Shown: one piece after another, positions 33,001-39,000 of the stretch | Numbering within the stretch: position 1 is the stretch's first letter | Layout of the letters: each line of letters begins with the position of its first letter | NCBI RefSeq assembly: GCF_002854065.1 | Contig: NZ_CP024150.1 | From: Escherichia coli | GTDB lineage: Bacteria; Pseudomonadota; Gammaproteobacteria; Enterobacterales; Enterobacteriaceae | Strand: one strand, 5' to 3' | Length of the DNA stretch: 64,000 bases | Program-made: the position numbers

Positions 33001-36000
33001 TGATCAAGGATGGATTTTTATGTTAACAGCCAACAACACTGACGCAGCGTGCGCTATTAAGGATTTTCAGGCGATGAAATGAGTGAAGTATCTGTTTCAT
33101 TTTTGCTGCCAGATGGATGGCCAACATTTAAAAGACGCGGTTTTGTGTTTAGAATAATAAGACTGTATTTGGGGGATAACATGACGACAGCAACCAGCCT
33201 GAACGAACTGCAGCAGCAAATCCGCGATCGCTACGATAGCCTGAGTAAGAGGCTGCAGCAGGTCTCCCGCTATGTACTGGATAATACGAACAGTGTGGCG
33301 TTTGATACGGTTGCGGTCATTGCCGAGCGTGCCGATGTGCCGCCCTCGACGCTGATCCGTTTTGCCAATGCCTTTGACTTCACCGGCTTCAACGAGATGA
33401 AACAGCTGTTTCGTATGAACCTGGTGGAGGAGACCGCCAGCTACAGCGATCGTGCGCGGCTGTTCCGCGAAATGGAGAGCGAAGCCGTGCCGGAAACGCC
33501 GCTCGATATCCTGCAGGAGTTTGCCCGCTCGAACGCGCAGGCGCTGCAGCAGCTGGCCGCCCGCGCCGAACCGGAGATGCTGGAGCGCGCCGTACAGCTT
33601 CTGGCCGCCGCGGACACCATCTACATCGCCGGACTGCGCCGCTCCTTTAGCGTCGCTGCTTATCTCACCTATGCTTTAAGCCACCTGGAGTGCCGCCCAA
33701 TTCTGCTCGACGGCATGGGCGGCATGCTGCGTGAGCAGATCAGCCGCATTAAGGCGCGCGACATTGTGGTGTCGATCAGCTTCTCGCCGTACGCGGAAGA
33801 GACGGTGATGGTCAGCGAAACCGCCGCCAGCGTCGGCGCGCGGCAGATTGTGATTACGGACAGCCAGATTAGCCCGCTGGCGACATTTAGCGATCTCTGC
33901 TTTGTGGTGAAAGAGGCGCAGGTGGATGCGTTTCGATCTCAGTCGGCAACGCTGTGCCTGGTCCAGTCGATTGTTGTAGCACTGGCATATAAATTGGGTG
34001 AAGTGGTCAACAAAAACTGGCCACCACGTTAGAGTTTTTCCAGTATCGGTTTTCCGATTCGTTTGGTGGTAACCCACCATTATATTCGTGCGGCCTGAGT
34101 GCGCTGTAATATCCAACGATATAGTCCGTTATTGCGTGGGCTGCATCGCTGAAGCTTACGTAACCTGTCACTGGCATCCATTCGTTCTTCAGACTCCGGA
34201 AGAAGCGCTCCATTGGGCTGTTATCCCAGCAGTTTCTGCGACGGCTCATACTCTGCCTGATCCGGTATCGCCACAGTAACTGCTGGAACTGCCTGCTCGT
34301 ATAATGACTGCCCTGATCGCTGTGGAACATCACCCCGACGGGTTTACCGCGAGTTTCCCATGCCATTTCCAGCGCTTTCATGGTGAGTCTGCTGTCCGGC
34401 GAGAACGACATTGCCCAGCCCACTGGCTTTCTTGCGAACAGGTCGAGAACAACGGCGAGATACGCCCAGCGTTTACCTGTCCAGATATAGGTCACATCAC
34501 CGCACCACACCTGGCTGGGCTCCGTTACGGCGAACTGTCGCTCAAGATGATTTGGGATAGCAACGTGCTCATGACCGCCACGCTTATACCGGTGAGTCGG
34601 CTGCTGGCAACTGACCAGTCCCAGCTCTTTCATGAGCCTGCCAGCAAGCCAGCGTCCCATCGGGTAGCCTCTCTGGGTTGCCATTGTGGCGATGCTTCTT
34701 GCTCCGGCCGAACCGTGGCTGATGCCATGTAGCACAAGCACCTGACTGCGTAATACGACCCGTCTGCCGTCTGGCTTTTCAGGACGGTTTTTCCAGTATT
34801 TATAGCTGCTGCGATGAACCCCGAACACATGGCAGAGAGTAACCACAGGATAACGCGCCCTGAGTTTCCCCATTATCGAGAACTGTTCAGGGAGTCTGAC
34901 ATCAAGAGCGCGGTTGTAGATTCAATTGGTCAACGCAACAGTTATGTGAAAACATGGGGTTGCGGAGGTTTTTTGAATGAGACGAACATTTACAGCAGAG
35001 GAAAAAGCCTCTGTTTTTGAACTATGGAAGAACGGAACAGGCTTCAGTGAAATAGCGAATATCCTGGGTTCAAAACCCGGAACGATCTTCACTATGTTAA
35101 GGGATACTGGCGGCATAAAACCCCATGAGCGTAAGCGGGCTGTAGCTCACCTGACACTGTCTGAGCGCGAGGAGATACGAGCTGGTTTGTCAGCCAAAAT
35201 GAGCATTCGTGCGATAGCTACTGCGCTGAATCGCAGTCCTTCGACGATCTCACGTGAAGTTCAGCGTAATCGGGGCAGACGCTATTACAAAGCTGTTGAT
35301 GCTAATAACCGAGCCAACAGAATGGCGAAAAGGCCAAAACCGTGCTTACTGGATCAAAATTTACCATTGCGAAAGCTTGTTCTGGAAAAGCTGGAGATGA
35401 AATGGTCTCCAGAGCAAATATCAGGATGGTTAAGGCGAACAAAACCACGTCAAAAAACGCTGCGAATATCACCTGAGACAATTTATAAAACGCTGTACTT
35501 TCGTAGCCGTGAAGCGCTACACCACCTGAATATACAGCATCTGCGACGGTCGCATAGCCTTCGCCATGGCAGGCGTCATACCCGCAAAGGCGAAAGAGGT
35601 ACGATTAACATAGTGAACGGAACACCAATTCACGAACGTTCCCGAAATATCGATAACAGACGCTCTCTGGGGCATTGGGAGGGCGATTTAGTCTCAGGTA
35701 CAAAAAACTCTCATATAGCCACACTTGTAGACCGAAAATCACGTTATACGATCATCCTTAGACTCAGGGGCAAAGATTCTGTCTCAGTAAATCAGGCTCT
35801 TACCGACAAATTCCTGAGTTTACCGTCAGAACTCAGAAAATCACTGACATGGGACAGAGGAATGGAACTGGCCAGACATCTAGAATTTACTGTCAGCACC
35901 GGCGTTAAAGTTTACTTCTGCGATCCTCAGAGTCCTTGGCAGCGGGGAACAAATGAGAACACAAATGGGCTAATTCGGCAGTACTTTCCTAAAAAGACAT

Positions 36001-39000
36001 GTCTTGCCCAATATACTCAACATGAACTAGATCTGGTTGCTGCTCAGCTAAACAACAGACCGAGAAAGACACTGAAGTTCAAAACACCGAAAGAGATAAT
36101 TGAAAGGGGTGTTGCATTGACAGATTGAATCTACAGTAGCCTTTTTTAATATTTCGTTTTCCATTTCAATACGTTGTAGCTTTATCTTCAGCTCACGTAT
36201 TTCGATTTGTTCAGGTGTTATCGGAGAGGCTTTTGATGTTTTACCCTGACACTCTTCAGGCAGTTGCTTGACCCATTTTATCATCGTGGAAAAACCGACA
36301 TCCATAGCCTTAGCGGCATCAGAGACGGTGTTGACGTTGCGACAGCCCGGGATGGAAACCCGCTGCCCCGAAGGGGCCGGGCAGAGACAGCGCAGCTGGC
36401 CCGGTGCGAAGCATGACAGCCCCGGTTCCCGTCAGGGAAGTCGCCCGTAGTGAAAACGGGAACGGGCAGAAAACAGAGAACGGGAGAATAAGAATGGATT
36501 ACATGCGGCTTAGTGGGAAACCTCACCAACAGGGCGGGGAGCAGTCACGAGATGGCAGACAATTATCCGGCGTGATGCCAGCCGGGAACATCAGGAGCGA
36601 AAATGCTTTTCTGTACTGCACAACGCTGTACCAGGCCGAAGCCAGGAAAGCAAAAACGGTGATCAGCACTCTGAATTCGTCACCCGTCTCCTTCCCCTTC
36701 AGCATCAACGTTATGATGATGCCGGCAACGATAATCCATGCAACGCCACTCCAGAGACGCAGTTTATCCGCCGCGACATTAATCAGGATAAAAGCAACGG
36801 CCACGATTCCTCCCCACAAAGCCGGTACATGCTGAAACGGAATAAACAACAGGTTAATACCGGTTAAAATAGTCACGGCTGCAAACATCAGAGACATACG
36901 CATAAAATTTCCTCCCCGAACACACTGACTATAAGAATCACTTCTGCTGCTCATCTCCGGGTTTATTATATTCGGGCGCATTTGCGCGCGGCAGCTGCTG
37001 ACTATTCTGCCGATGAACGTCAAGCCGTTCACGGAAATACAGGCGAAGATGTTCAGGCTGTTCCCGTTCAACAATCTCAGGCACCACGGGCTTGTTCATC
37101 CTTTCCTGCCAGGCAACGGCAGCGGCGGCTTTATCGACTGAGACCTTATCCTGATCTTCTTTTGAGAAAGAGGCGATATTCCACTTTGACATATGCATCA
37201 CCGGTCTGCTTTACAGGAAGATATCCCTGATAATACGCGCATTCCAAGGCTTCAGCGACTGACAACGGAGAGGAGAGTGCGCGGCGCCGGAGGCGCGGCG
37301 AAGTTTCTCTCCGGCAGGCGCAGCCTGCCCGGGTTTTCGTGCGGGCTGACAGGCGCCCTCCGGCCCGGACGCCTGCCATCCTGCTTACTGGCCGTATCCG
37401 TCCTGTCGTATAAACTGGCCGCAAAGGTAAACAGCGCTCTGACAGGTCATGTAGTAACATATTTCGTCGATCACCTGTTCTGTCCTTAGCGCCGACTGTC
37501 CATTCTCACGTCGGCGGGCATTAATCAGGGCTTTGTACTGTCGCAGGATCTCGCGGGTTTCCGGTGCAAGTTTCATACGTTTTCTCCTTAACCGGCGGGT
37601 ATCCCCGCCGGACATTAATCAGTTGCTGAAAACATAGCCGTCATGGAACACATAGCCGCTGCTGAACAGGTCACGCGCCCAGGCTTCAAAATCGAAATAG
37701 CTGCGCAACGGCTCCGGCACCTCATTTAACAGGCCGTTGTCCTCAACCATCTCCCGCGCATAGTCCTCCTCGCTTTCCGCCTCGCCGCGGTACGCATCAT
37801 CAAACGCGTCATAGTCACACTCGCCGGTATACTCCGCCCAGGCGATAAAAGCGGCTTCCCTGCCCTCTTCTTCGGCGCGTTTGTAAGCGGCGATAAAATC
37901 CCAGTCAATGGAGCATTCAGAGACGAACTGCGACGGAATGCCTTCCCAGTCCTGGAACATAAACTCGGCATCCCATTCATCGGCATGCAGTGCCTGACAG
38001 GCCTCGTAAAAATCCTCCCTGCCGTCAAACTCCGTCAGATCAAACCATTTGCCGAAAATGCTGCCGCAGTTGTATTTGTGATATGTACCCACGTAAACAG
38101 CCGGTGTGGTGGTCGTAGTGCTCATAAAAAATCCTCCATAGTCGATGTCGTCTGAGTTACGGCTTACGCCGTGCCGACACGACAGCCGGGCGAAAAGCGG
38201 AGGATGCAAGGGCGTCACCGAAGCCGCAGCGCAGTAAAAAAGCAGGAGCAGGCTGGACGGTTTGACGGCGAAAACTGAGCCGGAAAACGACGGGAAGACG
38301 GCGGATAACGTATGAAATAAACTGCGACCGGGTGAAGGTGACGGCGTTTACGCTTCCCTTGCATCAGCCGCGGCCCGGCTAAAGTAGCGGCACGGCGGCC
38401 GCACGATGGCAGGAACCTCAAATACGGCCTATGTTCAGAACTGAGGTGAACCCTGATTACAGATCCACAGCGGAGAAACACAATGTGCGGTCGGTTTACG
38501 CAGTACAACTCCCGCGAGGAGTACCTGGCCTTTCTCGGAGAAGAAGCAGAACGGGACATCCCCTATGATCCGGAGCCTGTCGGCCGCTACAACGTTGCGC
38601 CCGGAACCCGGGTATTGCTGCTGAGTGAACGCCGCTCGCAGCTGCATCTTGATCCTGTTCACTGGGGTTATGCCCCGGAGTGGTGGAACAAGACCGCTCT
38701 CATCAACGCCCGAAGTGAAACTGCGGCCGGCAGCCGGATGTTCAGGCCGCTCCAGGAGCACGGACGGGCCATTGTTTTTGCCGACGGCTGGTTCGAGTGG
38801 AAACAGCAAAACGGCGTGAAACAGCCGTTTTTCATTTACCGTAAGGACGGAAATCCACTCCTGCTCGCTGCCATCGGGAAACCACCTTTTGAGAACGGCA
38901 ATGACCTGGAAGGGTTCCTGATCGTCACGGCAACTGCGGATGAGGGACTGCTGGACATTCACGATCGGCGACCGCTCGTGTACTCACCGGCTGCCGCACG

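Follow-up and report, generated by a model that had tools for sequence, protein, structure and literature searches.

A complete IS30 nested in a left-truncated IS911-like element on a mosaic IncFII plasmid of Escherichia coli

The stretch of DNA analyzed in this work (64,000 nucleotides of contig NZ_CP024150.1 from the Escherichia coli assembly GCF_002854065.1, hereafter the window) contains a complete copy of the insertion sequence (IS) IS30, nested in orfA of an IS911-like element of the IS3 family, which has itself lost its left end and abuts a GC-rich non-coding segment. We interpret the whole locus, with a probability of about 0.9, as the relic of a series of mobile-element events that took place on a mosaic IncFII plasmid of E. 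coli. This is an ordinary structure of a kind described before, since IS30 in a preferred site within a broken IS911-type element is also found in E. coli K-12. The window corresponds to positions 18311-82310 of the E. coli plasmid p2017.06.05CC_1 (IncFII, 109.8 kb, mosaic, with many ISs), with 99.98-99.996% identity in three BLAST blocks, and sister plasmids share the nested junction with the same truncation (3 E. coli records that match over the full length at 99.95% or more, and NZ_AP027831.1). The coordinates of the features discussed below are collected in Table 1.

The inner element had been predicted from the sequence alone to be an IS30 of exactly 1221 bp with GT on both sides, which turned out to be correct. 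It exhibits 99.84% identity to IS30A of K-12 across 1221 nt, and the K-12 copies IS30A, IS30C and IS30D are likewise annotated at 1221 bp. The terminal inverted repeats (~26 bp) are imperfect, with matches at 23 of 26 positions. The open reading frame (ORF) of the transposase is uninterrupted and shows Pfam matches to HTH_38 (1.6e-23) and rve (4.1e-14); in the annotation of the identical plasmid its product is WP_001254932.1. The element agrees with IS30 in its length, its repeats, its single DDE ORF with an N-terminal helix-turn-helix (HTH) domain, its near-identity to the reference and its 2-bp duplication, and it is structurally intact and presumably still active. BLAST searches with the two flanks of IS30 against intact IS3-family copies aligned positions 11-926 of the reference with 33999-34914 of the window and positions 925-1120 with 36136-36331. 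The two alignments are colinear with an overlap of 2 nt (reference 925-926), hence the GT/GT pair is a true 2-bp target duplication and not a chance occurrence.

Table 1. Features of the nested locus and its immediate surroundings (positions in the window)
Feature	Position	Strand	Basis or remark
Gene of a MurR/RpiR (IolR-like) regulator; last ~10 codons replaced by 10 codons from the right end of the IS	33181..34032	+	ORF listing, Pfam
3' part of the host IS: right inverted repeat (TGAAGTGGTCAACAAAAACTGGCCACC...), orfB, last 15 orfA codons	33999..34914	-	BLAST, Pfam
orfB of the host IS, 288 aa, rve	34007-34873	-	Pfam rve 3e-30
Left copy of the 2-bp IS30 target duplication, GT (AC in the host-IS orientation)	34913..34914		
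Complete IS30, 1221 bp	34915..36135	+	Sequence reading, BLAST against K-12 IS30A
IS30 left inverted repeat	34915-34940		Starts TGTAGATTCAATTGGTCAAC
IS30 transposase gene, intact, 383 aa, HTH_38 and rve DDE core	34977..36128	+	ORF listing, Pfam
IS30 right inverted repeat	36110-36135		Ends …GATTGAATCTACA
Right copy of the 2-bp IS30 target duplication, GT	36136..36137		
Remaining 5' part of the host IS: orfA codons about 23-87 with the A AAA AAG heptamer	36136..36331	-	Alignment, Pfam
Deletion junction, GT common to the IS (…GACGGTGT) and the backbone (…CTGCCGT/TGACG): 2-bp microhomology	36330..36331		Three-way alignments
Non-coding plasmid backbone spacer, 'GC-rich'	36332..36522	+	BLAST homology to F-like plasmid spacer
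17-nt tandem duplication, 2.2 copies, consensus GAAAACAGAGAACGGGA (GAAAACGGGAACGGG-type repeat)	36452..36488	+	Polymorphic among plasmids
Small hypothetical membrane-like protein, first gene past the spacer	36523..36903	-	No Pfam family; then a theta-subunit homologue and ardA upstream

Once IS30 and one GT (1223 bp in total) are removed, the flanks join into a colinear element on the minus strand, which belongs to the IS911/ISEc52 group of the IS3 family. In the orientation of this host IS, the reconstructed sequence across the insertion point (slash) reads …GAAATATTAAAAAAGGCTAC/CGCGCTCTTGATG…, and orfA is split at the protein position that had been predicted. The host IS extends from 33999 to 36329-36331 and keeps 1110 of about 1249 bp. 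On the right it ends with the T of TGAAGTGG at position 33999 (octamer TGAAGTGGTCAAC), and the same terminal octamer starts intact relatives that are flanked by 3-bp duplications (GAG/GAG in pECL_A and GGG/GGG in the strain DSM 103246), which places the end proposed earlier, 33997, 2 bp off. At the opposite side everything from position 36332 is plasmid backbone, so the limit of 36345 lay about 14 bp too far. Thus, alignment to reference copies supports the nesting of IS30 in a left-truncated IS911-like element as originally proposed, however with corrected outer coordinates, and shifts of 2 bp and about 14 bp leave the interpretation unchanged. The loss of the left end was also correctly recognized, but about 22 codons of orfA are missing rather than the first ~45; the Pfam match of the orfA fragment to HTH_Tnp_1 begins at profile position 25 of 75.

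The first 27 nt of the right repeat of the host IS are identical to the right repeats of the ISEc52/IS911 type, and the left repeat is absent, as it belongs to the 139 bp that were deleted. The heptamer A AAA AAG, which serves as the -1 frameshift signal of IS911, is found at nt 185 of the 1110 retained nt, and orfA and orfB are in the relative -1 frame, in agreement with membership of this group. ISEc52 (from pECL_A of Enterobacter cloacae ATCC 13047) and a copy from the Cronobacter sakazakii plasmid pH322_1 share with the host IS the right repeat TGAAGTGGTCAACAAAAACTGGCCACC, the orfA/orfB layout, the heptamer and the rve domain, with 92-94% identity over the retained 1110 bp. When the two parts are considered separately, the host IS exhibits 93.6% (orfB part) and 94.4% (orfA part) identity to the Cronobacter copy, 94.2% and 81.6% to ISEc52, and 94.5% and 82.4% to IS911 of K-12. 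The pattern of identity in the host IS is mosaic, with a Cronobacter-like orfA (94.4%) and an IS911/ISEc52-like orfB (about 94%), and unlike the intact ISEc52 and Cronobacter copies it is devoid of the left 139 bp and interrupted by IS30. The identity to IS911 and to ISEc52 falls below the ~95% usual for sharing an IS name, and 'IS911-like', not IS911 proper, is a fair label.

IS30 is inserted 5 nt past the A AAA AAG heptamer and thereby detaches orfB from orfA with its slippery site, so that the OrfAB transposase is lost; with the left repeat missing and the transposase split, the host IS is immobile. BLAST searches of the window revealed neither the missing left end of the host IS nor other IS911-like or IS30 copies, which rules out an explanation by inversion or by a composite transposon within the window. 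A partial 'HTH' gene at 19227-19445 was considered as the lost N-terminus of orfA and rejected, as it exhibits no DNA similarity to the reference ISs and encodes a different protein.

A closely similar arrangement occurs twice in the K-12 chromosome, where IS911 has been described as incomplete and interrupted by IS30A (PMC9333248). According to the annotation, the CP4-6 prophage comprises IS911A (335 bp), IS30A and then the remaining IS911A, and KpLE2 comprises IS911B (334 bp), IS30D, an IS600 fragment and then the remaining IS911B. The flanks of three K-12 copies (IS30A, IS30C and IS30D) were used for comparison. IS30A follows …AAAAAAGGCTAC with an AC duplication, i.e. it is found at the dinucleotide used in the window, in the opposite orientation relative to IS911, while IS30D is oriented as in the window and borders on its other side on IS600, which is cut at the homologous …TTAAAAAAAGCAAC/ position. 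The remaining copy, IS30C in ydbA, is found after TTAATAAAGGTACT, a similar half-site, and its site shares the TTAAnAAAGGtAC half-site. Both K-12 composites (IS911A::IS30A with insN fragments/insI1 and IS911B::IS30D with insO fragments/insI3) resemble that of the window in the 1221-bp IS30, the same IS911 dinucleotide (…TTAAAAA(A)GGCTAC/), the AC/GT duplication and the incompleteness of the host IS911. They differ in that the truncation affects the orfB side of IS911A but the orfA/left-repeat side of the window copy, and in that the host IS of the window is a different variant (82% identity in orfA, 94.5% in orfB) and plasmid-borne. The IS911::IS30 composite was also found on plasmids of Klebsiella, Enterobacter and Citrobacter. 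In the K-12 region 4507125-4509801, IS30D is positioned between IS911B and an inverted 5' fragment of IS600, both cut at the homologous position of the frameshift window; these flanks look like the product of recombination between two IS30 copies, each residing in a different IS3-family element.

IS30 is known to insert either into hot-spot sequences, with 2-bp duplications, or beside its own inverted repeats (PMC9333248), and the comparison of flanks is best read as repeated, separate insertion of IS30 into a hot spot within IS911-type elements. The recurrence at the frameshift window of IS911 and IS600 is well supported; neither an adaptive nature of this recurrence nor a lack of prior description is. 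We consider it rather unlikely that the hot spot coincides with the frameshift window (TTAAAAAAGGCTAC) of IS911/IS600-type elements in such a way that IS30 systematically lands in and inactivates them as harmless 'safe-haven' pads, with the choice of site as an evolved strategy between elements and not an accident of sequence preference.

The left-end truncation was localized by three-way alignments, in which the window was compared with intact IS copies and with plasmids devoid of the IS. The IS reads …GACGGTGT(AGTT…), the backbone …CTGCCGT/TGACGTTGCGACAGCC… and the window …GACGGTGTTGACGTTGCGACAGCC…, and from 36332 on the window aligns base for base with the backbone of plasmids without the IS. 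The 139 bp lost from the host IS encompass the left inverted repeat, a leader of 72 nt, as annotated for IS911A of K-12, and about 22 orfA codons. The sister plasmid NZ_AP027831.1 contains the same IS30, orfA remnant and deletion junction; it additionally carries a group II intron (ltrA), which interrupts orfB and separates what remains of it from the iolR regulator. The homology to the window resumes at the equivalent of 34486, which makes this plasmid an example of three-level nesting.

The segment 36332-36530, which the original prediction had regarded as being of unknown origin, is identified by BLAST as a spacer from the leading region of F-like plasmids, with matches in 1067 plasmid records from Klebsiella, Salmonella (including pSLT-like plasmids), Enterobacter and Citrobacter. 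Homologous spacers in related plasmids are 89-97% conserved. In intact relatives the spacer belongs to a long intergenic region that extends from the theta-subunit homologue/small hypothetical gene to ssb, within the leading-region array ardA-…-ssb-parB-psiB-psiA, and the ssb-proximal part of this region is 68-70% identical to Frpo2 and Frpo1 of F. Frpo2 is a single-strand promoter upstream of ssb (PMC9849209; PMC11541004). In the relatives (the E. hormaechei plasmid and the pSLT-like plasmid) the flank thus shares its intergenic region with a Frpo-homologous hairpin upstream of ssb, while the window, unlike the F Frpo2-ssb region, keeps only the hairpin-distal spacer and has neither the hairpin nor ssb at the junction. 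The downstream partner of the flank in the window is the truncated IS, and the order spacer-Frpo hairpin-ssb is seen only in the intact plasmids. The description of the flank as unusually GC-rich with GAAAACGGGAACGGG-type repeats is accurate as to the repeat, but 'unusual' applies only in a relative sense: its GC content is 60.8% vs 50.2% for the window, the neighbouring iol genes have 61-66%, and the segment stands out only against the AT-richer IS30. One unit of the 17-nt repeat is absent in the E. hormaechei plasmid, while pKPC-LK30 has both. The pSLT-like plasmid (~3145-3185) has a (GGAACA)x6-7 array in place of this repeat, and the spot is a slippage-prone, purine-rich microsatellite just downstream of the stop codon of the theta/hypothetical gene. 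Frpo-like sequences, with 69-93% similarity to Frpo1/Frpo2 of F and to the Frpo region of the pSLT-like plasmid, are found elsewhere in the window, at ~15020-15299 and ~12167-12294, close to psiA/ardA in its other leading-region fragment.

The recurrence of the IS911::IS30 composite might alternatively be explained by a single ancestral composite that has spread by descent or as a 2.47-kb transposing unit, with the window copy as a diverged, truncated descendant. Movement as a unit is compatible with the contig of DSM 103246, in which the whole composite (positions 3016-5487) is found between the GGG/GGG 3-bp duplication, and the window-type composite is present across many replicons and genera. 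Descent, if true, should leave few contexts and one IS30 orientation per lineage, while hot-spot targeting, if true, should be seen as many distinct contexts, an orientation ratio of about 50:50 and a palindromic logo matching TTAAAAAGGCTAC. Both orientations of IS30 are found at the same dinucleotide, which one event cannot give, and IS30 also occupies the homologous site of IS600; moreover, the IS30 copies differ by 0.16% (99.8% identity), as opposed to 6-18% for the halves of the host, which speaks for separate insertions of recent date. We therefore regard the single composite as improbable and favour repeated insertion into a hot spot over one inherited event. Even less probable is that IS30 itself made the left-end truncation, by an adjacent deletion or by resolution of an (IS30)2 dimer. 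IS30 does generate deletions, inversions and cointegrates from active junctions between inverted repeats (PMC9333248), and the intact IS30 is only 196 bp away from the breakpoint. However, transposase-mediated adjacent deletions start exactly at the IS30 terminus, while here both ends of IS30 keep the duplication and 196 bp of the host IS separate IS30 from the breakpoint; the junction itself shows only the GT microhomology typical of illegitimate recombination. This makes us consider the role of IS30 in the truncation very improbable, and we infer illegitimate recombination at the GT microhomology as the mechanism of the deletion.

As to the flank, a functional structured element, such as part of a Frpo/ssi promoter, a priming signal or a small RNA, would be in agreement with its 89-97% conservation and its fixed place beside a Frpo-like hairpin in more than 1000 plasmid records. 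The flank also lies on the inferred T-strand of the leading region and contains short GC hairpins, and in F the Frpo1/Frpo2 repeat unit runs about 100 nt past the hairpin on the same side. The Frpo of the F leading region reportedly acts as a single-strand DNA promoter (Masai and Arai 1997). On the other hand, a BLAST comparison of 36250-36650 with the leading region of F gave no match, either at E<0.01 or at E<1, hence no similarity to Frpo1/Frpo2, and the homology of the intact relative to F Frpo stops about 30 nt into the segment retained in the window. As single-stranded DNA, 36332-36530 has a minimum free energy of -33.5 kcal/mol with z of -1.1 (26 of 200 shuffled sequences fold as well), and the RNA of the other strand is no more stable than its shuffled versions (z -0.34), while intact Frpo regions, with a hairpin of about 320 nt, reach z of -5.9 (F Frpo2) and -7.6 (pSLT-like region). 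Besides, Rfam contains no family matching the flank, no second copy was found in the plasmid, its length varies by tandem duplications and hexamer arrays, and in the window the promoter hairpin next to it has been deleted together with the target gene. The candidate assignment as a Frpo/ssi element was accordingly rejected for the remnant itself, and a functional element of any of these kinds seems quite unlikely. We read the flank, on the grounds of its homology and position, as a probable inert backbone spacer left by the deletion, and not as a new element.

Both orientation classes are common in E. coli, in favour of the proposed reading: among 5426 complete genomes (query coverage at least 80%), the window-type composite was detected in 780 and the IS30A-type composite in 829, although these are counts of genomes inflated by clonal and laboratory strains and not counts of events. 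Several points weigh against the proposed reading. The putative agreement of the IS911 site with the 24-bp consensus of the IS30 hot spot (Olasz et al. 1998) is based on four K-12 flanks, and by eye the two halves of this site show only weak symmetry (about 5-6 of 10-14 positions). An intact copy with more than 95% identity to the host IS variant was not found in PLSDB or among the E. coli genomes, and the left end of the host IS, next to which one copy of its own target duplication would be expected, is gone. An exact 40-mer of the left inverted repeat, used to gather IS30 flanks from contigs of one genome per species, retrieved a single locus at a contig end, which cannot support a target logo.

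Whereas the boundaries and identities of the elements, the 2-bp duplication, the use of one site in both orientations and the homology and position of the flank are seen directly, the following course of events, including its order, is proposed to account for the locus. An element of the IS911/ISEc52 group may have inserted into the last ~10 codons of the iolR-like regulator gene, at the edge of the iol island. IS30 would then have entered by hot-spot-targeted copy-out/paste-in, 5 nt downstream of the A AAA AAG heptamer and with a 2-bp duplication, thereby separating orfA and the slippery site from orfB, so that no OrfAB transposase could be made. Finally, a deletion or illegitimate recombination would have stripped the left 139 bp of the host IS and joined it, via the 2-bp GT microhomology, to the spacer that is found, in an F-like leading region, distal to the Frpo-type hairpin preceding ssb, with the loss of the hairpin, ssb and anything between at the junction. 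The outcome is an immobile IS911-like element that does not encode a transposase, an intact and presumably active IS30 and, as the GC-rich flank, a probably inert spacer remnant.

The IS marks the boundary between the iol catabolic island and a relic leading region. The IolR-like regulator, whose C-terminus is replaced, retains HTH_6 and a complete SIS domain (Pfam) and may still be functional, to judge from its intact domains; the native C-terminus is …AYRLGDGSNERGHSVG* in the homologue from a Salmonella plasmid (85% identical iolR). A search of plasmids for the empty site of the host IS revealed only three sister plasmids and this 85%-identical Salmonella iolR, so the exact pre-insertion sequence was not recovered. 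At the opposite edge of the island, the gene at 19227-19445 (minus strand) encodes an N-terminal HTH fragment of a different transposase (MLHTTNPVIKHKTGLLNLAEELSNVSKACKIMGVSRDTFYRYRELADEGG…) and abuts a truncated umuC; the iol island is therefore bounded by IS remnants on both sides. Two copies of umuDC (17716-19218 and 39182-40690, about 84% identical, in the same orientation) flank the iol island and the nested IS, and the plasmid holds two ardA genes. The two umuDC and two ardA suggest that two different leading regions have been fused, or one has been split, by the iol island. Rfam reported an ALIL-pseudoknot at 37754-37853 (minus strand) inside the ardA ORF 37619-38218 (minus strand), with 16.4 bits against a gathering score of 50 and E=0.53, which is almost certainly a chance match.

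The locus is of little importance alone. For annotation, it is useful because it marks where a rearrangement has joined an imported iol (myo-inositol) catabolic island to a relic F-like leading region, with the loss of the Frpo-type hairpin and ssb at the junction. IS30 is the only mobile element at the locus presumed active from its intact sequence, and it could give rise to further rearrangements. That the same dinucleotide next to the frameshift signal of IS911 and IS600 has been used repeatedly is a clean natural example of what appears to be hot-spot targeting by IS30.

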